The notes under the pieces: model-generated
Database searches by the model: none
What the model saw: only the letters and a program-made list of their open reading frames with translations
Told to the model about the DNA's origin: nothing
Program-made: the position numbers and the translations under genes
Part shown: in pieces, positions 1-20,000 of the stretch
How positions within the stretch are numbered: the first letter of the stretch is position 1
Layout: each line of letters begins with the position of its first letter
Source of the DNA: Seison nebaliae
Lineage: Eukaryota
Direction of reading: 5' to 3'
Length of the DNA: 20,000 bases
Assembly: GCA_023231475.1 (NCBI GenBank)
Contig: JALJEE010002175.1
Coordinates: forward strand, 122,986-142,985

Positions 1-2763
1 AAGTAAAATACAGAAGAATTAGGTAAACGAGAATGTGGGAGTGACGGAAATCGTTTGCTCAATAACTGATAAATATGTGAGGTAGAAAAAAACATATAAT
101 TGAATTGAGACTAATAACAATAATTGAGTGTATGATGTTGAATAGGATACTTTGACTAGGAGAAGAGGAAAAGTTGGAAGAAATAGTAGTTTCATTTTCA
201 TGTTCCGATTTTCTCCGGAAGGAAAGTTTCGCGAATATTTTCATTCTCTATTACATGATACGATGATAAAATGATAATCTACCAAACTCTCCTTTTCCTC
301 CTCTCCATTCTTCTCGACGTTCTTATATCTAAACAGAACGGAATGAGATAAGAAAATAAATTTAATTTCTTCAAAAATATTGATTTCATTTAATCAGGTA
401 ACACCAGACACACGACCACCTCAAAGATGATAATGTTACATTTGATTTGTTTTCAACGAGACAATAGGAGGGAGAGAAGGCACCCGATGGTGAAACATAA
501 AATCGAAATACATTTCAATCGATATATCGTCCCCATGTTTTCCTTACCGACGACGACGATGACGACGACAACCATAATTAGAACAAAAATAAAAGACAAG
601 AATGGAATGCGGAACTTGAAACAAGAAGATGAGAGGCAAATTACACATTTTCCTTAGTTTTAATGACGATGTAATTTTGATCTGAATTAAATGAAAAACA
701 TAAAACTTAAAAAAACTTCCTCCACTCTCACGGATGGCCGTACTCTGTGTTATATCGAAAATTAGTAAAATAAATTTTTGAAAAAATAATATCTACTTTT
801 ATTGGAGATAAATGATTGAAATAGATGTTTGATAATCGTCTAATTCTACATCATCGATGAAATGGAAATAATCGGGTAGTCGATTATTTTGGAAATATAA
901 CGGTTGAATCGAATTGATAGTGAAAGGTGTTGAAATATTTTCCTTTTATTTTTCAGAAACTACCTTGAACTCCAAATACATTTCTGTGCATGGAATTCCA
1001 ACAAGTGCTTATATTGATACCAGTTACCATAGAAACGGAGTCCGCTACTCATGATTAATTTTCAATCATTTAATTGGATGGAGTTCAATGGAATGTGTTT
1101 AGATGAAATAATGAGAAACGATCGACATTCATTTTGACAATTGTGAAATTTATATTATTATGATTCCGATCATAATCGAAGGGTTCTTAGGGAGAAGGAC
1201 TCCCTCACTTTCCCTCACCGAATTTTCTACTTCACTTCATGCAAATAATTCTTTCAATTAATCGGAAAACAACTCGATGAATGAAAGAATCATATGATTC
1301 TCCATACAATGAGACAAATGCATCAGAAGATCAAAGAGGTGTGGGGAAATTATCAACACTGAAATTTAGGTCATATGTTGGGAGAGAGGGGAGGGGCGAG
1401 AGAGGAAAAACTTAAATTAAATGGTATTGATTCGATTGATAACGTTTGTCAATAGGATAACAACAAATTTTGAGTATATCATTGACACAGTTCGAATGTT
1501 CATCATCTCGTCAGATTTGACTAACGTAAGAATTTTTTTTCTTTATTCATTCGAATGTTCAATATTCTAATAGATGATATGATGATATTGAAGAAAAACT
1601 TTTGAATTTCTCTGAGAACGGACAAGAAAATATTTTCGAAGATAAATTTCTTCCATGAACAGAAGATCCTAAAGATAGTTAAATATGTACTGGTAATGGA
1701 ATGTATTTTAACAATCAAATTAACCAAAAGAAAATGGAGAAGGTTAGTGAAATAGAAGATGATGGAAATACGAATCGTTTGGTGTTGAGACGTTCCGAAT
1801 AAGAAGATCGATTACATAACAAACAGCTAAAGCCGAATGGATGAAGATATCGGAAAGATTTTCCTTCAATTACATCTTCTCAAGGAATGAATGAATATGT
1901 TATCCGGAAAATTTATTCCCTTTTATTCTCGTTTTCCTCACTTCGAATTCTTCATTCTTTCATTTCAAATCGGTTTGGATATGAGACGATTTTGTTCGAA
2001 TGTTCATAAATAAAAATATTCTGTCACAAATAATTCTTATCTTGTCAAATTCCTTATGATTGTGCGAACAATTTACGTCTAGCGATAAGTGAGAAATCGT
2101 GATGAAGATGAATCATATTGAATGGGGGGAAAAGAATTCCGATAAACTTCTCTCCAACTTTTCTGGAGCAATCAACTATTCGTTATCGGGTGGTGTGATG
2201 AGCAGAAATTATTAATAATATCTTCCGATTAATATCGGAAATGATAAGAAACACTTCCGCTCCCTCCGACAAATACACGTTAAGTCAATATTGAACTTGG
2301 AGTATTTGTAGATGGGCAAATGGTTTTGCTCCATCTTTCTAACATATCTCTTCTCCGCTCAGAATGGTTGGAGGAAATGTACAGGAAATGTTTGTTAATC
2401 ACATTGAAAACAAACATATTTACACCAACTGATCGCCTTGTTCCTTTTTTGGGGAAAGACTTCCGAATTATTCTCCTAAATTGATCTTCTAAATTTTCTT
2501 CTTCTTCTACTCATTTATTGGAGATGTTTTTGAAAGATAAATAAATATCAATTTCAATCAATGATGAATTATAATTATAAATAAATTATCTTTCTTCCAG
2601 AAAAGAAAAGAAGTTGATGGAAAACATTTCAGTCTAAAATGATGATGGAAATGATGAAAATGAGAGTTCGTTGAAGAGAAAGAGAATGATGAAAAGAATT
2701 GATAATTAAAAAGGTCTTTCTTATCTAATCAAGTTCATGGGAGAAGGTGATAAAAAGGCAAAC

Positions 2764-3810
2764 TTGTAATTCGACCAAATCCTCATGAAGAACAGCATGA
2801 ATCATCTGACGTCTTGCACGACGATAGAGTGCGTTCTTCTTGTTTGATTGCATTCCCTTCAAGGAAGTAATGACAGTTGCTGCATCATCTGATTGTAAGG
2901 AATTGTTGGAAATGTCAAAGACGTCATTGTCGCCGTTCGAACGGTTGGTATGGTGACGTCCAGAATTCTTCTTCCCACCAATCCCACCATTCATGGCAGA
3001 TAGGGAAGAATTCTCATAATTATTAGAGATTGAGGTAGCGGATGTGTTAGTAGTTGTAGAAAGTGTCGTAATTGGAATTTCGCTCGCAATAAATTTGGAG
3101 AAAGAAAGGGAAGAAGTGGAGGAGTCGTCGGGTCGATGAGAAGTGGGAGAATTCTTGATAATATTTCCTTTAAAATTTATGTTGTTTTTAGTATTTGGAA
3201 TAATCTTTCTATTTTCCTTCGATTTGCTTAACGACTCGAAAAGACTATTCGATTCACATGAAGCCGGATATGTATTATCGGAAAGAAGAGCTTTACTTGA
3301 AACATTTGTAACGGAATCATCATCATCATCGTCATGTTGGTCGCCATGAAAATAATTCCTTATTCCATTTGACGTTAAAGTAGAATTTGTGTTTATCGAA
3401 TTTTCTTTTCTTCTTCCGTCGTTATCATCCTCATTCGTCTCCTGCACTTGAAATGAGTTTGTATCAGAAATTAAATTCGAATAAGTATTTCTACTCCCAT
3501 TCTCTTCTTTCTCCCAAACCACTTCCTTCTCCATTCCAATTCTGTCTTTTAATTTCTTCCGATTATTTTTCGACGAGAGACCGTTCTTCACTCGATGATT
3601 AAGTGCACAATCTATGTTAATTATTTCGTTGACAGTTAATCGATCGTGATCGCCATCGTTCTTGTCTTTTGCAAACCAAATGTTGGAAATGTCTTCTGAT
3701 GTGGGGATAATTGATGGGGAGTCGGTCTGTGAAGTAAATGATACTTTACTGGAAAAATTACTTCCGTCTAACGACAACATATCATCGACAATTGACACTG
3801 TTTCACTCAT
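2764..3810 (-). CDS. Large coding exon of an unidentified gene. Ser/Asn/Asp-rich, probably disordered N-terminus ending in a possible ankyrin-like helix. 3' exons not resolved.
   Basis: 368-codon stop-free frame (2725-3831) in AT-rich DNA. First ATG at 3810 (MSETVS). AG acceptor at 3845-3844 with a possible 5'UTR intron 3844-3906. The frame reads ...RRARRQMIHAVLHEDLVELQ and then a phase-0 donor gtttgc at 2763. Confidence 0.6.
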
Positions 3811-4887
3811 CGATTCATATCGGGAAGACAATTTAAAATAATTCTATGAAAAAGAAATAATGGAATGAAATTAGGTCGATATGAAACGATTGATAGATCG
3901 ATTAACTGCTGTTTTCTATTTACCATCATCAAATCAAACCACAACAGACACAACTGAACCACATAAAATTGGAAGTTTTTCAATAAAAAAAGCTGTCGTT
4001 CAATTTCTGCACCAAATTATTCTTTCATAAAAATATAACAATAAAGTCAACTTCAAATTTCAGTAGGAACTTCTTAGGACAATTAAAAAACTAGGACAAT
4101 CGAATAAGACAATTAACAGAATAAACAATCTATCAACGTCCAAATTCTTCTTCCTTGATATTTTTTGGTTCCTTCAAAAAAAAAGGAAATCATCCTCGAT
4201 TTGTAGATGACAAAAAATTTTTTTTGAAACATAATAAATCAGTTTAGGGCAATGTTGAACAGAGAGAGATAGATCAGATTACGTTTTTATCGTTCTACTT
4301 CCATTTTGTCACTTTGATACTTTATATACGAAATTTCGAAATTGACGAATTTGTCAAAGTCAAATATGGACCAGTGGTCAATGTCAATGCAAAGGAAAAG
4401 TTTCATTATTCTAACAAGTCAATATAATCAAATTTAATTAATAAATATTTGGTTCTAAAAGGAAATCTGATTATTGTCAATAAGTTATGGAAATTTTACA
4501 TGGAAAATGGTTTTGAGAAGATTTTATGGGAAAACATTAGAAAAAATGTTTGTGTAATTTTCCTGAGAATTGATGAAGAGAAGAAAGAAATAAAAGTTCC
4601 AAACTACAAAATGCCAGCAGCAACAATAAATTCGAGTTATGATAAAAGATTGACATAAATACCACATCGGATGGAGAATATTTTGTGGTGAAGAGAGAAT
4701 TATTCGTTTGAATGTCATTTATATAATTAGTAGCAGTGGCAGATAACTAATCGAGGAGGACTAACTAATCAGAAAAAGGAGAATCATGATAATCTAAACG
4801 ACGTGATAATTGGAGAAAATAACCATTTGCGTGACAAACATATTTCTGATAGAGTAGGTAAAAAGGAGGAGAATTTAATTTAGTGCA

Positions 4888-6985: not shown

Positions 6986-8070
6986 TCATTTCACTTGTAA
7001 CATCGATCGAGCGATGAATTCGTCGATATTCTCCAAATCCCAGAAATATTCACGAAGTGTCAATGCTTCTCGTTCATTCTAATTAGAAATTTGAAATTCG
7101 AATATTCCTCAAATGTTACAAACTCAACAAACTTTAAACAATTGAACAAGATCTTGTTGTTGTAATGAGGCGGCCGCCCCTGACATTTGTTCTTGCATCA
7201 TTCTTGATTGATCTGCCGCCGCTATAAATAAATTAATTGCTTCTTCAATAATTCCAAGAGTCTAACCATTATTCTCGCCTAAAATTAAACTGAAAATACT
7301 TCGTAGACCAAACACATTAATGAAATACCACGACAATGAACTTACCCTAAAAATTTGAAAATGATAAATTTCTCTCAAAAACAGAAAAATTAACCAAGAA
7401 GCATCTAATGATACTAATTCAACTCCGCGTTGTAACATCGGTTTAAAACGGAAAGTTAACGGAAATGGAACTTTCGCTAAAAATAAATTTCGGAAGTTAA
7501 TTTAACATGTCTTCTGTTTACTAACTGCAGAGAAATCCGGAAAACATCCAATTAATCCATCCGCCGATAATGATCGTGGGAATTGTATGGAAGAGACTTC
7601 CCTTCATCATATCCGCCATCTGATTTGGATCTGATGGAAAATTATTGTAAAAATCAAATTCGAAAAATTTCAACTTTGCAACATTTTCTTCTGATTGGAA
7701 GATGATGGTTCCAATAATAAACCGTCATCATTATTCAATAATCGATGACGACGAATTAGATAAGCCTAAAAATATTTATTAGAGAGATTAGAAATAAATT
7801 AGGGGGAAAGAACTTCTTTTGGAATGAAGATTCCATTCTCTCGTAAAACCTTACTCTTAAGAAGTAATTGACTATACAAAGAAAATTCAGATTATTTTTA
7901 ATTGATGATTAACGGAGGAACCTGTCGGCTATTTGATTCAGTTCAACTTTTCGATCAGAAACAAAATATAAAGTTAAATAGTGTCGAATAATTCCCACCA
8001 GCAGACTAATAACGGCGATAGGAAGAAATACCCAAATTCGAATATCGGAATCTAACAAAATTTCCGACAT
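6986..8070 (-). CDS. EMC3: ER membrane protein complex subunit 3 (TMEM111), 248 aa, 8 exons
   Basis: Exons 8070-7922, 7871-7814, 7765-7675, 7630-7526, 7476-7395, 7346-7267, 7221-7133 and 7078-6986 total 747 nt in frame. They read [17 protein letters not shown]...VLRENG...MADMMKG...[12 protein letters not shown]...[17 protein letters not shown]...[28 protein letters not shown]...[12 protein letters not shown], which are hallmark EMC3 motifs. Introns are 44-54 bp, all GTT...AG. Confidence 0.97.
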
Positions 8071-8209
8071 TATTAAAATATTAAATCCAATTTTCAAAAC
8101 TTCATTTTTAAATTAAAATTTAAAGTTATTCTTCCTCTTTCAAATTTAAATTTATTATTCCTATAATTTCAGCTCATTATGGAAATTATTGATCATTATA
8201 ATGTCTATA

Positions 8210-8244
8210 AACCAATTATCAACCAATTATCGATACTATCGATA
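8210..8244. promoter_or_regulatory. Candidate EMC3 promoter cluster: tandem AACCAATTATC (CCAAT) x2 overlapping TATCGATA (DRE-like) x2
   Basis: aaccaattatc at 8210-8220 and 8221-8231. tatcgata at 8228-8235 and 8237-8244. The cluster lies 140-175 bp upstream of the EMC3 ATG. Confidence 0.35.
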
Positions 8245-9313
8245 TTTGTCCTAATATGAAATAATTAAACTAAAATAATGAAAATTCAATTCTTTCTTTA
8301 ATCTAATAAGTTTTGCCTTTTTACATCAATGGATTTTAGAAGATTTAAGATGAAAAAATTTAATAGATGCTTCATCAAAAAAAACGACTTTGATTATTAG
8401 AAAGTTAGAAGGAAATCAAAAAACAATGCTGACTGTGAGAATTAAGATAGGAAAAATAATTAGAAAATTAATTATTTGAAGAACGCATCACCAAGTTGTT
8501 ATTTTCATGAATCTGGACGGCTCTCTTTAGAAGAGCAAAAATATTATTGTTTTGAGGAAATGTTATTAATTTAGAGTTTGTTTATTTATCACTCGTATGA
8601 TCCAAATTCATGAAATAATTCATAACATTCCGTATTTTAACATCCTTCAGGTTGGGGTTGGAGCCAAAATTTTAAGTTGAAAGAAATAAGAAAATGAGAA
8701 TATTTGATGAGTTGTGAAGGATATGAGACATAAGCTATTCCAATAACAATTACCGATAGTGAAAATATTGGGAATGATAACTTTTCTGAGAATAATGTAC
8801 AGAATAATTATGGAATCCTTATGGAAATGATATAATTAGTGGATGTGTTATTCATCCCAGCACACTCCCCCAACTACCGAATATTTGAAAACTTCTCAAC
8901 AATTAATAGTATCAATCAATCAACTGACAAATTGGAAGTGAAGACGGGGGAACTGGCCATTCTATCATTAGATATTTCCATCGAGTAATTTCATTAATTC
9001 TCTTAAATTAAACAATCTCTCATAAACATTTTGTTACTTTGGACTTGTGTAAGTGTAGAGAGGAGAGAAGTTTCTTCTACATCTTCTTCACATCTTCGCT
9101 TCATAAGACTAACGACGTCCATCGCTTCATTCTGTCAATCGACTCGACTTAATTATGAATTATATAATTTCAGGCGAGTAAGTAGTTGATGTATATGTTC
9201 CTCTTACTACAACGAATATCAAACAATCTTTCGTCCTCATCTATTGGTAAACAGCAACACACTTGAACAAATCAAGTTCCTATGAACATTTGGAAACATC
9301 TCCATTCGTCAAC

Positions 9314-10844
9314 ATGAGTGGAAGTATTCAATTGAAACAGTCACTCGGTCTCATGTCCAGCGTGAGTATCGTCGTCGGAATAGTTATCGGTTCTGGAATT
9401 TTCGTCTCACCCAAAGGTGTCCTCCAATATACGGGCAGTGTTGGCGCTTCGTTGCTTGTGTGGTTGGCATGCGGTGTAATAACCACCATAGGCGCACTAT
9501 GTTACGCCGAACTAGGTACAATTTTCACCGAAGGCGGTGGCGACTACATTTATATCAAACGAACAATTGGAGAACTTCCTGCTTTCCTTTTTATTTGGAT
9601 GATGGTTGTCGCGATCGTACCGGCGGCTAATGCAATCACAGCGATCACTTGTGCAATTTATATATTGAAACCGTTTTTCGGTCATTTATGCGATCCCGAT
9701 ATTCTGGCCGTGAGAGCGGTAGCAGCGCTTTGTATCCTAACTGTGGTGGCATTAAATTCGCGAAGTGTTAAATTGTCGGCGCATTTAACCACCTTTTTCA
9801 CTGCGGGGAAAGTGTTGGCCATTTCCGTTATCGTGGTGGTGGGATTTGTGGTCCTTTATCTTCATTATGATCAATTACAAGTATTCGATGAACCATTCAA
9901 AGGTACGAACACTCATGTTGGTCGCTTCGTACTGAGTTTCTACAGTGGACTCTTTACGTACAGCGGATTCAATTTCCTTAATTTACTTATCGAAGAAATG
10001 AAAGATCCGTACAAGTTAGCTTTGATTATTTGGCTACTTTTTAAAATTTGTTTCATTCAGAAATTTACCACGTACCATCATGATTGGTATGCCATTAGTG
10101 ACAATCGTTTATCTTTTGACGAATTTGGCTTATTTCGTCGTTTTATCAAAAGAAGAAATTCTTCATAGTCCGGCAGTTGCCCTAATGTTCGCCGATTATA
10201 AATTACAACCAGTTCCATTTTTAATGAGTTACGCCGTCGCCATTTCGGCATTTGGTTCATTGAACGGATCAATATTGACATCGTCTCGGTTATTCTTTGT
10301 GGCTGCGAGAGATGGATTGATGCCGAAAGCTTTATCATTTGTCAATGTGAATTACCATACGCCGATAATTTCAGTTTTATTTGAAGGCGTCATTACTATT
10401 ATTATGTTGTTCGTTGGCGATCTGTATCTACTGATTAATTATTGCATTTTCGCTGAATATCTTTTCATTGGTCTATCTATCATCGCTTTACTTGTAACGC
10501 GCTACAGATCACCAAATGATGATCGACCAATTCGAATCTGGATCGGCCTACCAATCTTATTTCTTATAACTTGTACATTCATTGTCATCACGTCAGTAAT
10601 CGAATCGCCGAGAGATTGTGGTATGGGTCTACTCATTATGTTGGCGGGTATTCCCATCTACATTTTAATGAGAATCGTCCAAAAATCGAAATATCAAAAG
10701 AAATACGATCATGTTGCCACCGTTGTCGATCAAGTCATCCAAAAAACTTTCCTTACAGTTTATGACGAGCAGGAATGTCTCGCTATTAGTCCACATCCAT
10801 CAATGCTCTCCATTCGTCATTGGACTCACCATCATGAAACTTGA
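9314..10844 (+). CDS. SLC7 L-type/y+L amino acid transporter light subunit (LAT family), about 494 aa, 2 exons
   Basis: Exons 9314-10014 and 10061-10844 (1485 nt) are joined by a 46-bp intron gttagc...ttcag, giving EEMKDPYK/NLPRTIMIGMP. Motifs include IGSGIFVSPKGVL, GALCYAELGT, YSGLFTYSGFNFLN and SLNGSILTSSRLFFVAARDG, plus the extracellular Cys (KPFFGHLCDP) used to link the heavy chain. The start could extend slightly upstream if there is another exon. Confidence 0.93.
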
Positions 10845-11329
10845 AACTATTTTTATAATTATCGATAAATAATCAATTCCACTTATTCACCTTTCAAATA
10901 TCGTTACCCGATAATTCAGTTTATCACATCTTTTTCAATTTTTAACCTCTATTCCATCTGTAAATAAAATAAACAACGTTAATATATTCAATCTGACCTC
11001 ATAATTCTTTTCCTTTTCAAAAAATTCTGAAATGTGAAGAAGTCTCGACAAGTCGATGAGAAATATTAGTAGGAAAATTGAAGAATGGAAATGTCACAAG
11101 ATTGATCCTACTTAAAGTGACATATTTCAAGACATTTTTTCAATTTCAATTTTATTGTGGTTTAATTCATAGTTCCATAAACATTTTTTAGTTTGTCGGA
11201 AGTTTTTCGTTAGTTAATATCACTGAATTATATTTTGGAAAAGAGCAATTACATTAGACAATTACAAATGGGACAATTTTTGTTCGGTCAAGACATAACA
11301 ACGACTTATGAGTATTAGATAAGCAAACA

Positions 11330-11760
11330 GCAAGTCCATAAAAATCACAGGAATAAGTGACGAACAACTTAAGTTTCAATTGAATCGAAAAAAATTTACA
11401 GCGATGATAAAATGAGTAGAAGGTTATATATAGAAGGAATTTGAATCTAATTTCATCGGTTGTAGCAGAACTCTTCTTCTTGTTATCAATTTTAATTCCC
11501 AAAAAACAGACATTCTTCTGAACGTATTCGATCATTCTGCACGCTCACCAGATATAAATCCTGTAGAACTTGTAGGCAATCATTTTCAGAAGATTGTACA
11601 AAGAGGGACGATGTTATTCCGATGTTGAAGAAGTTTGGAATAGCTTAGAAAGAGAAATTAATGGGCCGAAATTCCTTCAGAAATATGTGAAATTTTAATT
11701 AACTCTATGAATCGTCCTTATTTATAAGTTGTAACACGAAAAAGAAAGTGGTCCGAATAA
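11330..11760 (+). mobile_element. Decayed, internally deleted Tc1/Tc3-like (IS630-Tc1-mariner) transposase remnant
   Basis: 11518-11600 reads LNVFDHSARSPDINPVELVGNHFQKIV, matching the WPxxSPDLNPIE third-catalytic-residue motif (SPDINPVE at 11545-11568). After frameshifts it continues YKEGRCYSDVEEVWNSLERE and EIPSEICEILINSMNRPYL*VVTRKRKWSE*, resembling the Tc3 C-terminus. The upstream KITGISDEQLKFQLNRKKFTA weakly resembles the HTH region. Boundaries are approximate. Confidence 0.8.
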
Positions 11761-11774
11761 TATAATTCTATAAA

Positions 11775-11777
<3 letters not shown>

Positions 11778-11811
<34 letters not shown>
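11778..11811. repeat. Poly(T) tract, 34 nt
   Basis: Read directly. Confidence 0.95.
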
Positions 11812-11813
<2 letters not shown>

Positions 11814-12391
11814 TTATAGCAAATATATATATACATATTCGATTGTAAATTGTAAAATTGAATGAATTAACTTATTTGTCATTTTCTATTAACGAAATGT
11901 TAGGAGGATATAAAAGTATTTTTAATTCACTATAATTACCTTTCGGTTTTAAGTAATTTGATTGATTTGGTAAACGTTTTCTATGAATTGACTGATGACG
12001 GAGAAATGTAGATTTTGAGAGGATTTTGCGACGCTAAATAACTTTCGTATGAATGTCGTTCATTTCCATAGGAACAAATTTCCTAAGAGAAAAATGGGAT
12101 CGACAGGAACGAACTTTCACACGAATTACACAACATTTTTACTTCAAATTATTTAAGAAAAATTGTCTAACAATAAAATATATAATATTGTAAGTTAAAA
12201 GTAATTGTCGATGATTAATCGCTATCACGTAAAAGATAAATAATTAATCGTTATGTAAACACAGTTTGATGATATGAATTGTTTATTAACAGTACTGACT
12301 CATTGAAAATGTTGAAGATTTCATTCTCCATTCATTTCTAAAAAATTTGATTTTGATAAAATTAATTTGAGTAGATTCTCCTTCGTAAAAA

Positions 12392-12961
12392 ATGCAACCC
12401 GCCGGCCAATTTAATCCCGCAATGATACCACCCACTACCCAAGTGATTGTGCAACAACCAACGTTCAATTTTTTTCCTTTTCAATATTTTTGAAAATTTC
12501 TTTTATTTAAATAATTTCAGTGTGACTCCACCTCAGAAAGCGTCATTCCACGAATTTATCGATCAATTCAATTCAGGTCTATGTGAATGTCCCAATGGAA
12601 GACATTGTTAGTCTTTCTAATATTAAATCAAATTTTAAATTCTAATTTTGTTTTAAATGATTTTCTATAGGCTTTTGCGCTTATTGTTGTACTTGTTGTT
12701 TTGTCATGGAATTGATGGGAAGAATGGGTGAAACGTGTTGCTCCCAATGGTTTTGTACACATGTTGGTGCCAGTTATATCAGACCAATGGTCCGAACACA
12801 ATTTAGCATTAGAGTTTCTTTTTTTCTAATTTCAATTTTTCAAATAATTCTTTCACTTTTTTCAGGGTTCTATGTCGGACGATTTCTGTAATACTGCCAT
12901 GTGTGGTCCCTGTGTCTTACAACAAGCTGCCAATGAATTAGATTATCGAGGATATCGATAA
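12392..12961 (+). CDS. PLAC8/cornifelin-family Cys-rich protein, 131 aa, 4 exons
   Basis: Exons 12392-12462, 12521-12606, 12671-12813 and 12866-12961 (396 nt) read MQPAGQ...QVIVQQPT...FNSGLCEC...CFCAYCCTCCFVMELMGRMGETCC...IRPMVRTQFSIRGSMSDDFCNTAMCGPCVLQQAANEL, with typical PLAC8 motifs (SGLCxC, IxGSxxDD, CxxxQxxxEL). Introns are 58, 64 and 52 bp, all GTT...AG. Confidence 0.93.
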
Positions 12962-13352
12962 TTTTTATTTTATTAATCGATCATAATTCTTAATATTATT
13001 CTTATTAACGTTTATTGTGGTAATTGCGACGTTCAGTTCATTAATCAGATTTTCAATGAACAATAAATATTTATTTTATTGATTTTTTATTTTTAAACGA
13101 ATGAAATTATAAATTTAATTAGATGAAATTTGATGGGGTTATTTTATGACGGAGATGAGTTAAAATAAATTCAAAAATTTCCCTGATTCTTTTTTAATTA
13201 TGATGGTCGTACTGATGGTTTTGTTTTTGAGTGCTTCCCAAAACTGATGTAGAAGGAGGACAACTGTATAAATTTGAAAATTCACATATCGATGTTGTGT
13301 GGCGATTGAAATGAAAAAAGAAGAAAAATTTAGAGAAACACTCTTCTTAAAA

Positions 13353-14678
13353 TCATCCGACAAAGGAGGTTGTGATGAATGAATAAATATTCAAAATTAA
13401 TCGTCTGACATCAATCGTGTCACGAAGACCCACCGCCATTAGACATGACGCATAAATCAATACGATTGTCGTCAATGGATACATTTGGAATGGGAGACAG
13501 AATAACCATAATGTATTAGAGAAACTACGTCTCATTAACGGTAACGTATAAATGGCATTACTAAAATTAAATAAAGAAATTTGAAATTTAAAAAATTGAA
13601 CTTTTTAATTCTCTCACTATCAGGCGAGAGATGAGTTGATGATAATAATGATTGAGTATCCAACATCGTCGAATTGGTTAATTTTGTATAAATGACAATC
13701 GAATGGATTCGAATCAATTCATTATTCCTCACTACGAAATAATTATCAGGAATTTCATTTTTTTTATTTATCGATTTCTTTTCTGTCAATGAAAAATTGA
13801 AGAAATGTCAAACGAGAAAAAAATTAAACCAATTTCATCTTGAATCACATCACAAACAATTAGAGCTGACATGGAATCGGCATTGAATAATGATCGTTTA
13901 TTATAAGACGTCCATACTCCCAATGATGACGGTTTACTGAATGTTTTCGATAATCCGATATCATCAGTCAAATAAATTCCATCGCCAAATAAATTCGTCT
14001 AAAAAAAAAATTTGAAATTAAAAAATTAAAAATAAAAATATAACATCTTTCGACAAATGAGATAAAAGACCAAAATGAGTAATCGAATGTAAATTTTCGA
14101 ATTTTGTACCATGAAGTAAACGTTTGACGGATTTGCCTTCACTTCTCATTTTCCATTTTCTTTCATATTCAATTCCATATCGTAATTTAACTTGGAGATT
14201 TGAATTTTGGAATTCTTCGCCGTTAAAAGAAATCTGATGAAATTGATATCGTTATTTCCCCGTTTATCAATAATATGGTTATGAATTAACTTGTTTATCA
14301 CATAAATTTTCTTTGACATCATAATGAATGGTAGAATCATCTTCTTTCAATAACCATTCAATAAAATCGATTTGTTCTTCATTAAATTCATTATCTTTAA
14401 TCTTTTTCATCCATTCATTGATTGATGGTAATGAATCAATTATTGTTTTCTATCAAATAATAATTGAAGATGAAAAAGAAGAAATCATATTAAACAATCT
14501 TCTCCAAATCATATTCATTATGATCTTTATCTTTTTTGTATTGGAGCGGTAACGGCGTTGATATAGATGATGCACGTAGACTGCACAAAGCAGCGCTCAA
14601 CTGACATAAAATATAGTCGATTTCAACTGGCGTGTAATTGAGAAGAGTCTTCGACAATACATCGCCACGATTCGTCAT
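13353..14678 (-). CDS. PARP16: PARP16/ARTD15-like tail-anchored mono-ADP-ribosyltransferase, about 362 aa, 6 exons
   Basis: Exons 14678-14496, 14449-14291, 14233-14045, 13998-13830, 13782-13602 and 13560-13353 total 1089 nt in frame. Motifs: LSAALCSLRASSISTPLP, LHGTKFENLHSITHFGL, NLFGDGIYLTDD, IVCDVI and EIPDNYFVVRNNELIR (H-Y-Y triad), plus a hydrophobic C-terminal anchor (YPLTTIVLIYASCLMAVGL). Introns are 41-57 bp, all GTT...AG. Confidence 0.9.
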
Positions 14679-15334
14679 ATTTCTTTCGACGACTTAAACT
14701 AAGTCGAATTAAGAATTCTACGAAACTTCAAGACGAAAAAACAAATTTGATAAAAATAATTTTTTCTTTGATAAATCAATTATCTATGATGTTTACATGA
14801 GAATGAACGAATTTACTCTTCTCAAGCACCTCATATTTTTCACTAGTAAGTCATCTTTACCGTCTCGTCGTCAACATTTATTTGAATTCTATCCAATTTT
14901 CTTCGAAGAAAACTTAAGCTCAACTGATCGACAGTGGGAAGAGAGGATTTATTTGAAGGAAAGAATTCGGAGAGCATCATCTGTCGACGTGTAATTGGTT
15001 ATCGAGAAGAAAGCTTATATATTTAAAAAATTTCTCAAGTAAAATTGTTAATAATTTTTTTGGTAAAAGTATCTTTAATGTATAATAAAACATTTGAGCC
15101 TCAAACTTTTTAATTTTCTTTACTTTTTTTTGAGTGAATAGGAAAATATGAGATAATTAAAAAAGAATAATTCAATAAATTCTTCTTCCAAAAATATTTT
15201 ATTTGAATATTTTTTTAAAGAAATTTTATTTGATAATTACATTTTCATACCAAAAAAATATTAAAATTAATTTTTTACGTTACTCATAATGAAAAAGAAA
15301 GATAAGAGAGAAAACGAAAAGGCTTCCACAAATT

Positions 15335-17690
15335 TCACAAAGTTTTTATTCCACGAACGAATGCATCCTCTTCATACAATTTCCCTACGATAATTCTCCC
15401 ATTAAAATAACGACCATTTAATGAATTGAGAGCATCGGTCGCCCCCTCATTACTTGTAAATTGGACGAATATTCTCACGACAATTTCATCATCCATTTTC
15501 CGCATTGGATGAATATCGATTTTTGTAATTGCTCCATATTTTGTGAGTTCATCTCGAATCTCTTCTTCTAAACTGTCGTCTACTTCATCTTCCGTTACCA
15601 TATTTTCGAGAAGAATGACATTAGAACTTGCGCAATCTTTCGACATCAATTTTTTGATATCAATATTTAATGATGATTCTAAAAATAAATAAAAATTTGA
15701 AAAATTATTTTAAAAAATTAACTTAATATATCGTCGGAATTATTTTCGTTTTCAGGTTCCGGTGGATTATGTCCGTTTGATAATCCGTTGGAATTCTCGT
15801 CTCCTTCCATGTCGACATCACCATCATCATCATCTTCTTCATTTTTCGTATTTTCTTTGTTTTCGTACGTTTTTTCTATTTTCATTATCGGTTCTTTTCT
15901 AGGGGAAATATATTTCCCAAAATTATTATTTTCTTTTTTTGTTTCTTTATTCGATGACAAATCAGATAAATCAATAAAAGTTCCGTCATCTCTTTCTTTG
16001 AAAGAGGCAGGAATTGGAGTTTTTGTAGTGGTAAATTCGATGGCATTTGATTCTTTTTTATCTTTTTTCATTTGTTCTTTCATTTCTTTTAAAATGACTT
16101 GTTCATCTATTTCATTCAAACCAGTTTCTAATATATGAATATTTTTCATTCTTCTCACCATATCCTCCACAATCGGATATGTCGTCACTAAGGGGAAATG
16201 TTTAAGTGCACCAATTTTTGCATTAATTTCTGACGAATTAATTTTTGCACTTAATTCTGAATTTGAAATTTCGAATGAATTCATTTGTTGTTTTGCATCC
16301 ATTACACCATAATCTGTTATACCTTCCGGTGGAGTAACAGCATGTCCGACACGTAACAATTGACCGCCCAAATCGAAAAGATTCATGGATTTGACAGCTT
16401 CTTCTGCTGATTTCGCTTCGACATATTCGACAAAACCGAATCCCTTATGTTTCCTCGTCGCTGAATCCACCATCAATTTACATAAATTAATTTTACCAAA
16501 CGATTCGAAAACCATCTTCACATCTTTCTCATCTAATCTAGCATCGACTGCTGAAATGTAAATTCTATTTCGATTTCTTGCTTCGATCACTAATTCGTCA
16601 ACAACCGGTTGTGCTTGAGGCATATTACTGGGTCGTCCTACTTTAATATTTCTTCCTCCTAAAAGTGCATTGTTCATTTGTTCCAATGCCATTTGAGCGG
16701 CTTCAGGTAAATCATATTCGATGAAAGCGAATCCTTTATGTTTATTTGTTAAACTATCCCAAGACATCGCCACATTCTTCAACGGACCGAACGGAGCAAA
16801 TGCTTGACGTAATGTCACTTCATTCAATTCGAAATTAATACTTCCCACATAAATTCTAAATAAAAATTAATAATTAAAAATTTAAAAAAAATGTATAATA
16901 AAAAATTAAAAATAACCGACACATCAATACGAGAGCTTGTTGTCTTTGTAAAATTTCTTTTTGTTCGTCTTGTTGTAATTGCATTTTCTTCTTGTTAATA
17001 TAATAAATTGTGTCATTAATTGATTGAATTTTAGCACGACGTTTCCCCTCTTCATATGAACGTTTCAAATTGTATCGTTCTAATTTACTTGATAATTTAT
17101 CCGTTTTCAGGATTTTCCCAAATTGCTCCATTTCCATAACGGCGTCGAACGGTTTCTTCGGTTGCAATCTCGATCGATGGATTTTGGGAATCGTGAAATT
17201 GACGTTGGATTCATTGAATTCCTTGTCGTCGACGGAAGATACGTTGGAACTGGTAGAGGTGATGGTTTCCGAATCAGCGTTCAACTGGTGTAAAAGATCA
17301 TCATATACGTGTTTGGATGTCGAATTGTCAGCTGCAAAAGAAAAGATTAGAAGTTCCTCATTGGATTCGAGAAGATGAGATTATGACACTCGTTTCCCTC
17401 TCAAGTTGATTTTAAGATAAAAATTTTATAATTCTATCTATGCCTCTCCGCCAATGCTGATGGGAGATGGGCATTGTCTTCTGAAATAGAAAAAGAGAAT
17501 ATGATGAGAAAGATCGCTTCCATCGTGTATTGGATGGGAGTTGTCCCTGTGCCAAATGAAGAAGAACTGAATCAGGAGGAATTTGCAAAACAATTCTGCA
17601 TTCAGAAAATAAAAGGCAAATGAGAAGATATTAGATCATCTGCAATTCTTGCAAATGTTCCTGTGGGTTATAATAACCTGAAGTTTTCAT
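15335..17690 (-). CDS. PUF60: Poly(U)-binding splicing factor PUF60/half-pint (RRM1-RRM2-UHM), about 634 aa, 4 exons; first exon inferred
   Basis: Exons 17690-17678 (ATGAAAACTTCAG, inferred), 17331-16917, 16855-15723 and 15678-15335 total 1905 nt in frame. Motifs: [78 protein letters not shown], and a C-terminal UHM with LNGRYFNGR. The span 15335-17331 is secure; the 13-nt first exon is less so. Confidence 0.93.
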
Positions 17691-19245: not shown

Positions 19246-20000
19246 ATGAAACATTTTCAAATTTGTTTGCTTTGTTGTGTTGTAATATTGGTTCGATGTA
19301 GCAGGAGGCCCAGGATGATGCACCCTAACCATGGAGTAGAGGAAATTGACAATGATTTATCACACGAAGAAGCAGTAATGGTAGAAGGGCGGAAAAGAAA
19401 GATAATTCCGGACGGTAGAGAAAAATTACCTGAAGAACAAGATGTTGTAGAGGGACATGACCCTAAAGGCAATGGTCCTAATCTTGATCCAACGGATTTG
19501 CCCGAATATCAATCAGAAGACGAGTTTGATTTTGATGGAGAAAAATTACCTGAAGAACAAGATGTTGTAGACTACAGTCTACTCTACAAGGTAAGGGGAC
19601 ATGACCCTGATCCAATTGTTAGGAAAAAACAAATAGAAATGGAGGATAGTTTGTTCCTACCTAATGGTAAGAATATTAGTCGTAATGTACTTAAAAAACG
19701 AAGATCTCTCAAAACTCATCACGCATGTGTTAATTCCGTTGCACATGCCAAACGTTGTCCATCTTGTGAAAAAAATCATCTGCCAATACATCAATGTTGG
19801 CAAGCGTATAATAGAAAATTCACTACATTACAAATCCAAAATCCAAATTATGTAAAACCGGAATATAATAGAAAAGAAGAATTTTTCGCTGAGCAACTTG
19901 CCATTTATATGGAGGAAGATCAGCATTTGAATCGTGTTTTGCAAGAAGTAGCAAATATAGGAGAGGAAAAGGTCATTCGTCCGATAAATGATCCTAGAGA
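19246..20000 (+). CDS. Orphan putative secreted protein, 3'-truncated by the window edge (at least 251 codons)
   Basis: The frame is open from ATG 19246 to the window end: MKHFQICLLCCVVILVRC (signal-peptide-like), SRRPR, an acidic region with a duplicated EKLPEEQDVV/GHDP, a basic stretch (LKKRRSLK) and CPSCEKNHLPIHQC. It is absent from the ORF track because no stop falls in the window. Confidence 0.75.
   Translation, partial: MKHFQICLLCCVVILVRCSRRPRMMHPNHGVEEIDNDLSHEEAVMVEGRKRKIIPDGREKLPEEQDVVEGHDPKGNGPNLDPTDLPEYQSEDEFDFDGEKLPEEQDVVDYSLLYKVRGHDPDPIVRKKQIEMEDSLFLPNGKNISRNVLKKRRSLKTHHACVNSVAHAKRCPSCEKNHLPIHQCWQAYNRKFTTLQIQNPNYVKPEYNRKEEFFAEQLAIYMEEDQHLNRVLQEVANIGEEKVIRPINDPR
19418..19571 (+). 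repeat. 34-bp exact direct repeat inside the ORF (period 120 bp)
   Basis: gagaaaaattacctgaagaacaagatgttgtaga at 19418-19451 and 19538-19571. gggacatgaccct also recurs at 19452-19464 and 19596-19608. Confidence 0.95.

Follow-up and report, generated by a model that had tools for sequence, protein, structure and literature searches.

The introns examined in a 20,000-nucleotide (nt) stretch of the genome of the marine rotifer Seison nebaliae (the window: contig JALJEE010002175.1, positions 122,986 to 142,985 of the forward strand) begin without exception with GTT. Position +3 of the 5' splice site, or donor, is T in 19/19 introns spread over five genes, those for PUF60, EMC3, a PARP16-like protein, a PLAC8-like protein and an amino-acid permease of SLC7 type, and A, G and C are absent from it. 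In other respects all 19 are ordinary, mostly short GT-AG introns whose acceptors read TAG or CAG only. From this one region it is highly probable that GTT donors prevail throughout the Seison genome. S. nebaliae, a seisonid rotifer hosted by Nebalia crustaceans, has compact genes in a genome of about 46 Mb at 32-34% GC (PMC8351084). Per kilobase, GC content within the window ranges from 27 to 41%, and the PUF60, EMC3 and PARP16-like proteins encoded there are identical (100%) to annotated S. nebaliae proteins (P0001, P0121 and P0129, respectively).

Evidence for the GTT donors

Eighteen of the donors had been listed in a first-pass annotation of this DNA, and reading them directly from the sequence bore out every coordinate and every GTT. 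A donor at 17677 that had been offered there as less certain belongs to a real PUF60 intron, as indicated by both protein mapping and a transcript gap, and the count therefore rises from 18 to 19. Two further uncertain donors, at 2763 and 3906, are unverified and were left out of the 19; four codons upstream of the latter, the phase needed to connect with the long open reading frame (ORF) contains a stop codon.

A published table of transcripts, assembled by Trinity from RNA-seq data and mapped to the genome by GMAP (supplement 2 of PMC8351084), supplies RNA evidence: its rows 1403-1405, 1434 and 1439-1440 reproduce the lengths of exons and gaps in PUF60, PARP16 and EMC3. Agreement between RNA junctions and gene models had been set beforehand as a check, and 15/19 introns (seven in EMC3, five in PARP16, three in PUF60) coincide with transcript gaps, all of them being removed from mature RNA. 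When each of the 15 gaps was slid over all of its equivalent placements, a single GT/GC-AG solution was found, and it was always GTT. The examined part of the same table holds no transcript rows for PLAC8 or the permease.

Protein evidence leads to the same junctions. Mapped exactly and without a GT-AG assumption, P0121 yields seven introns and P0001 three, each with a single GT-AG placement; mapping of P0129 and of the PLAC8-like protein P0130 gives five and three introns. As annotations may carry a trained bias, a spliced aligner with no preference beyond GT/GC, and hence neutral at +3, was also used. With four EMC3 proteins from outside Seison it placed 27/28 introns at identical donors, and with five PUF60 homologues it recovered the donor at 16916 in 5/5 cases and the donor at 15722, which lies in a poorly conserved linker, in 2/5. 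Among PLAC8 homologues, P0133 recovers 3/3 introns and P0136 recovers 2/2 in its aligned part. Taken together, protein mapping, outgroup alignments and transcript gaps rule out a gene-model artefact as the cause of GTT.

The permease intron is the least well fixed, being placed by reading frame and by continuity of the PF13520 profile, positions 1-229 and 215-408 of which fall on the two ORFs. An in-frame alternative donor, GTACAA, lies 6 nt upstream of GTTAGC. The spacing usual in this family ahead of the NLPR motif favours the GTT site.

The introns are T-rich (53.7% T in intron bodies), and at that frequency T at +3 in 19/19 introns has p = 7e-6, or p = 9e-5 for the 15 RNA-fixed introns alone; the one-sided 95% lower bound on the T fraction at +3 is 0.85 if introns are treated as independent. 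With respect to intron class, GT...AG ends with a YAG acceptor are present in 19/19 and removal from RNA is seen in 15/19, as in U2-type introns, and the purine at +3 that is typical of animals, though not strictly defining for the U2 type, is found in 0/19. No donor has the A at +3 of the U12-type RTATCC; U12-type donors are given as ATATCC in PMC3033335. An intron scan blind to positions +3 to +6 returned 24 candidates, comprising nine known introns, two that overlap known introns from a wrong upstream GT, and 13 others. The latter are mixed at +3 (six T, four A, three G), lack homology or RNA support, and were counted neither way. A search for a branch-point motif gave no fixed position.

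The remainder of the donor

The first-pass annotation had described the donors as having little else conserved besides GTT. Its counts are accurate, G at +5 in 5/18 and exonic AG in 1/18, and with the donor at 17677 included they become 5/19 and 2/19. Its wording is too strong, as both G at +5 (p = 0.004) and A at +4 (10/19, p = 0.04) exceed the intron background; T is depleted at +4 (4/19, p = 0.004), and T at +6 (11/19) is at background. What emerges is a faint consensus, GTTAGT, which is GTAAGT with one swap and the complement of a U1 end reading ACUAAC.

Nineteen other GT sites could form an intron of 40-70 nt with the same acceptor as a real donor, 11 of them non-GTT and eight GTT. None of the 11 is a donor in the accepted models, and for two the pairing with canonical U1 exceeds that of the donor in use. 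Both are found in PARP16: a GTGATT 19 nt upstream of the intron 4 donor, and a canonical-looking GTGAGA (at 13617) 16 nt upstream of that of intron 5, where the donor used is GTTCAA. GTT looks necessary for donor use, and as eight GTT sites are also passed over it is not sufficient; short intron length and U-rich composition likely supply the remaining specificity.

A lineage-specific change at position +3

For comparison, metagenomes were scanned with a rotifer PUF60 alignment and the best 80 of 185 confirmed loci were retained. Eleven of these lie nearest to named bdelloids, and ten group with the PUF60 sequences of Adineta, Rotaria and Didymodactylos (support 98/97); the eleventh, at 58% identity and outside the clade, was excluded, its donor being GTAAAA (L054). 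Introns with fewer than 4/8 identical residues on either side were dropped, leaving 47 distinct, well-supported bdelloid introns, and at +3 these have A in 41, G in three and T in three (purine in 44/47). The contrast with 19/19 in Seison has a Fisher p of 9e-14 by intron and 6e-8 by position, figures to be read with the proviso that bdelloid donors drawn from one gene in related genomes are not independent; by intron position, T is the majority at 1/13. The remaining PUF60 loci have T at +3 in 12/50, a normal minority. Bdelloid introns are themselves 49% T and of similar length (mostly 45-70 nt), and they have G at -1 in 24/47 and at +5 in 26/47. The weak exonic AG and weak +5 G of Seison are therefore partly common to bdelloids, and what sets Seison apart is mainly its different +3 base. 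At one bdelloid PUF60 position both copies read cag/GTTAAA (L043:1737 and L048:4300), a +3 T beside a full exonic CAG, as the AG//GUNNN donor class predicts.

The swap can be followed at an old intron. PUF60 intron 2, at the LMCR motif, shares its codon and phase with nine bdelloid and 13 other loci, and it follows an exonic TCG in Seison and in 7/9 bdelloid loci. Its donor is GTAAG in 9/9 bdelloid loci and GTTATT in Seison, which indicates that an old intron exchanged its +3 base in place; among the 13 other loci, +3 is T in 2/13. An origin of the Seison introns from introners or transposons is ruled out by this ancestral position, and the donors differ from one another past +3.

A second Seison-like sequence may also bear on the question. 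Public contigs matching EMC3 include low-depth ones (2-5x, against 14-27x) at 86-93% identity beside identical full-depth ones, consistent with the two Seison lineages, differing 8- to 14-fold in depth, of PMC8351084. Three low-depth contigs cover an EMC3 donor, and their alignments end at +3, +3 and +4, after which the letters differ. This pattern alone has p = 0.15, coming as it does from three single contigs and from alignment ends; it fits, weakly, a GTT that was kept while the rest of the intron turned over.

The first-pass interpretation, a lineage-wide shift to near-invariant GTT with an implied change in the splicing machinery, is partly supported. Lineage-specific T at +3 is backed by the RNA-fixed junctions, by the bdelloid contrast at an ancestral intron and, weakly, by the diverged second sequence, and its genome-wide extent, judged from five neighbouring genes, is likely.

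A proposed change in U1 and its alternatives

In a standard U1 small nuclear RNA (snRNA), the base facing +3 is a (pseudo)uridine that pairs with A or G, giving the usual GTR. The mechanism proposed is a one-base change in the U1 5' end from ACUUAC to ACUAAC, which would place an A opposite +3. Since such an A would have one good partner, U, donors would carry T alone at +3, with neither a mixture nor C. The major spliceosome of Seison would then have changed genome-wide, with old introns converted in place, probably after the donors of short AT-rich introns had become weak, like the partly decayed ones of bdelloids, and AT-biased mutation would have supplied the T. On our analysis a U1 change is the best single mechanism, with an even chance of being correct, and if GTT is indeed genome-wide the balance tips slightly in its favour. 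Mean pairing of Seison donors is 4.6/9 with canonical U1 and 5.6/9 with the variant (bdelloid donors reach 6.2 with canonical U1), a gain that is built in by the observation of T at +3 and is no independent test.

A number of points tell against a genome-wide GTT code read by an altered U1. All 19 introns come from five adjacent genes in one region, and inside intron bodies T follows GT in 7/9 cases, so that a local base bias helps the pattern. Pairing with the variant U1 is modest, a mean of only 5.6/9, and would still be better at one unused non-GTT site than at the real donor. The +4 A and +5 G could be relics of an ancestral GTAAGT, or could be read by U6. Lastly, Saccharomycotina yeasts, Giardia, Thecamonas and Mamiellales have atypical donors, mostly at +4, with an unaltered U1 (bioRxiv 10.1101/2022.06.08.495308).

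The last point leaves room for a protein-based reading, in which the shift is genome-wide, U1 is canonical, and an altered U1-C, LUC7, TIA-1-like U-binding protein or PRP8 selects the +3 U. The U1-C candidate of Entamoeba is strongly diverged (bioRxiv 10.1101/2022.06.08.495308), LUC7 paralogues, SNRNP27K and METTL16 shift donor preference (PMC11732430), and Seison proteins evolve fast, as the long PUF60 branch illustrates, with about 35% of metazoan BUSCO genes not found in Seison assemblies (PMC8351084). The effects described for such proteins fall mainly on +4 and on the balance between exonic and intronic pairing (PMC11732430), however, and a U:U mismatch in every donor would leave them with the low canonical pairing given above; we regard this reading as unlikely, if still the foremost alternative to a changed U1.

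Alternatively, U1 could be minor or lost and U6 could read +3 instead, either through a G-U wobble involving the normal ACAGAGA box or through a changed box, ACAAAGA. U6 ACAGA can pair with +2 to +6 of GUUUGU (bioRxiv 10.1101/2022.06.08.495308), the spliceosome of Cyanidioschyzon lacks U1 and has an altered ACAGAGA box (PMC10158995), and exonic pairing of the U1/U5 type is weak in Seison. Reading by U6 predicts a strong +4 U and +5 G, however, where T is in fact depleted at +4 and G at +5 reaches only 5/19; a G opposite +3 should also accept C, which is found in 0/19; the review that describes Cyanidioschyzon (PMC10158995) saw no reduced spliceosome in the animals covered, and the window is intron-rich. 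The GTTAGT remnant together with the scarcity of +4 T favours a U1 change over an Entamoeba-like match to U6, and reading by U6 alone appears improbable.

Least probable of all, and a rather remote prospect, is an unchanged machinery, with +3 relaxed and T-rich introns drifting to T, or with an unrepresentative region: intron bodies are 54% T, a single region was sampled, Micromonas has splice signals restricted to an atypical chromosome (bioRxiv 10.1101/2022.06.08.495308) and +3 T is a real minority class in other PUF60 loci, yet drift predicts about 30% A at +3 and 0/19 was found, the T fraction has the lower bound of 0.85 noted earlier, the neighbouring +4 and +5 are not T-rich, and bdelloid introns combine 49% T with only 3/47 T at +3. 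Pure base bias is disfavoured as the cause.

With the rivals so placed, we consider it slightly better than an even bet that the major spliceosome of Seison has been re-specified, an intron-rich genome, ancestral introns included, having been recoded from GTR to GTT with either a changed U1 guide or a bypass of U1.

Gene structures and other features of the window

Coordinates of the five coding sequences and their introns are given in Table 1. The name of the PLAC8-like gene is that of the first-pass annotation.

Table 1. Coding sequences (CDS) and introns carrying the GTT donors, in window coordinates; aa, amino acids
Feature	Length and junctions	Position	Strand	Evidence
EMC3 CDS, 8 exons		6986..8070	-	P0121, SNEBB_005968, 248 aa; transcript rows
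EMC3 intron 1	50 nt, cag/GTTCCT..TAG	7872..7921	-	protein, outgroup proteins, transcript gap; diverged contig aligns through +3
EMC3 intron 2	48 nt, gaa/GTTCTT..TAG	7766..7813	-	protein, outgroup proteins, transcript gap; diverged contig aligns through +3
EMC3 intron 3	44 nt, aaa/GTTGAA..CAG	7631..7674	-	protein, transcript gap; 3/4 outgroup proteins
EMC3 intron 4	49 nt, gca/GTTAGT..TAG	7477..7525	-	protein, outgroup proteins, transcript gap
EMC3 intron 5	48 nt, ttg/GTTAAT..TAG	7347..7394	-	protein, outgroup proteins, transcript gap
EMC3 intron 6	45 nt, atg/GTTAGA..TAG	7222..7266	-	protein, outgroup proteins, transcript gap
EMC3 intron 7	54 nt, aaa/GTTTGT..TAG	7079..7132	-	protein, outgroup proteins, transcript gap; diverged contig aligns through +4
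Permease (SLC7-type) CDS, 2 exons, start codon inferred		9314..10844	+	PF13520 profile
Permease intron	46 nt, caa/GTTAGC..CAG	10015..10060	+	reading frame and Pfam profile continuity
PLAC8-like CDS, 4 exons		12392..12961	+	identical to P0130, 131-aa database protein
PLAC8 intron 1	58 nt, aac/GTTCAA..CAG	12463..12520	+	P0130, P0133
PLAC8 intron 2	64 nt, att/GTTAGT..TAG	12607..12670	+	P0130, P0133, P0136
PLAC8 intron 3	52 nt, aga/GTTTCT..CAG	12814..12865	+	P0130, P0133, P0136
PARP16-like CDS, 6 exons		13353..14678	-	P0129, SNEBB_005971, 362 aa, PF18084 and PF00644; transcript row
PARP16 intron 1	46 nt, att/GTTTAA..TAG	14450..14495	-	P0129, transcript gap
PARP16 intron 2	57 nt, caa/GTTAAT..CAG	14234..14290	-	P0129, transcript gap
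PARP16 intron 3	46 nt, gat/GTTATA..TAG	13999..14044	-	P0129, transcript gap
PARP16 intron 4	47 nt, ttg/GTTTAA..CAG	13783..13829	-	P0129, transcript gap
PARP16 intron 5	41 nt, aaa/GTTCAA..TAG	13561..13601	-	P0129, transcript gap
PUF60 CDS, 4 exons		15335..17690	-	P0001, SNEBB_005972, 634 aa; transcript rows
PUF60 intron 1	346 nt, cag/GTTATT..CAG	17332..17677	-	P0001, transcript gap
PUF60 intron 2	61 nt, tcg/GTTATT..TAG	16856..16916	-	P0001, homologues, transcript gap; phase 2, LMCR motif, ancestral
PUF60 intron 3	44 nt, taa/GTTAAT..TAG	15679..15722	-	P0001, transcript gap

PUF60 intron 1 is unusually long; one assembled transcript has it spliced out, and another retains it. PUF60 being itself a splicing factor, the retention is possibly a form of autoregulation, or it may merely be pre-mRNA. 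The Seison protein keeps two RRMs, has an acidic and strongly diverged linker and sits on a very long tree branch, and the large exon of its gene is free of the introns found there in bdelloids. More generally, the parts of the published transcript table considered here contain many genes with isoforms that differ by the retention of single introns of 40-60 nt, possibly because weak donors are spliced inefficiently or because the library contained pre-mRNA.

At EMC3 intron 1, the read-through ORFs P0122, P0123 and P0125 lose similarity at the same codon, which suggests that the intron position is old. On the strand opposite to EMC3, an intron-like sequence of 48 nt (8125-8172, +) that begins a short way upstream of the EMC3 start reads GTTATT..TTTCAG and may be an intron in the 5' untranslated region of a divergent transcript. 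Further along, an unspliced transcript in supplement 2 of PMC8351084 covers 8345-8959 and has no notable ORF. A 36-nt match to a full-depth contig at 7659-7694 was set aside as coincidental or paralogous.

Other features lie between and beyond these genes. A transcript of another cluster maps to 11285-11518 at 94% identity as a secondary path. The nearby frame at 11434-11628 resembles, by its motif, a decayed fragment of a Tc1/mariner transposase; a Pfam scan gave no match there. At 2200-3843 (-), a low-complexity ORF of 372 aa with no Pfam match stands upstream of a short frame that resembles a PX domain only weakly (E = 0.005, below the cut-off), and the locus is possibly a sorting-nexin-like gene. 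Inspection by eye of an acidic, coding-like stretch near the end of the window (19400-19620, +) showed a unit of about 35 nt that is directly but imperfectly repeated, with copies at about 19417 and 19537. An Rfam scan of the window gave 0 matches.

Significance and comparison with known systems

If correct, the shift would be an example, rare among animals, of a splicing signal that was recoded, and a natural experiment on how a core RNA-RNA code and splice sites genome-wide change together in a metazoan. A change from purine to T at old introns makes it testable in an animal whether such signals alter by coevolution of the machinery or by loss of poor introns, and Seison offers the setting for it: an intron-rich genome, close relatives (bdelloids) in which the old state persists, and two Seison lineages that can be compared. 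On a practical level, Seison genes would be misjudged wherever gene prediction or heterologous expression presupposes GTRAG.

Searches of the openly accessible literature brought up no account of the donor consensus in Seison, in other rotifers or in acanthocephalans, nor of any animal in which T dominates +3; the consulted parts of PMC10125929, PMC10599564, PMC3033335, PMC10158995 and PMC10245619 contain nothing on an animal consensus of this kind. In a comparison of 61 species the 5' splice-site motif follows phylogeny closely and animal phyla cluster (PMC3033335).

The nearest known likeness is Entamoeba, whose GUUUGU donors are accompanied by a U1 with ACAAAC and which combines a diverged U1-C with a canonical U6 ACAGA box (Roy and Bowser, bioRxiv 10.1101/2022.06.08.495308). 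There, too, +3 is a near-invariant U, with an A opposite to it in U1. Entamoeba is an intron-poor protist with a strict donor of six to seven bases, GUUUGU being present in 88-90% of its introns, whereas in Seison only +3 is fixed, +4 is mostly A, GUUUGU occurs in 1/19, and the predicted U1 is ACUAAC, not ACAAAC. Nor is the low intron density shared, there being 19 introns in five Seison genes and many multi-gap transcripts in the published table. Single-base U1 changes that match an atypical donor are also known in Mastigamoeba balamuthi, which at about 2.5 introns per gene is richer in introns than Entamoeba, and in Physarum polycephalum; unlike the Seison proposal, these lie at +4 (ACGUAC and ACAUAC) and in amoebozoans, the only group for which coevolution of snRNA and donor is documented in the literature examined (bioRxiv 10.1101/2022.06.08.495308). 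The yeasts, Giardia, Thecamonas and Mamiellales share with Seison a lineage-wide departure from GUAAGU but differ in that it is mostly to a pyrimidine at +4 with U1 unchanged, so a U1 change is not obligatory.

Among metazoans, the two donor classes AG//GUNNN and NN//GURAG (Parker et al., PMC11732430) rely on the same U2-type chemistry and tolerate weak exonic or weak intronic pairing, but Seison fits neither, with AG//GU in 2/19 and GURAG in 0/19. Bdelloid donors resemble those of Seison in their short AT-rich introns, weak exonic signal and ancestral intron position, with G at +5 in about half, and depart from them at +3, where the bdelloid base is mostly A (41/47) and seldom G or T (three introns each). 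A donor and U1 system of this general kind is thus known from amoebozoans, and what appears new in Seison is a single-position swap in an intron-rich animal whose relatives retain the old state.

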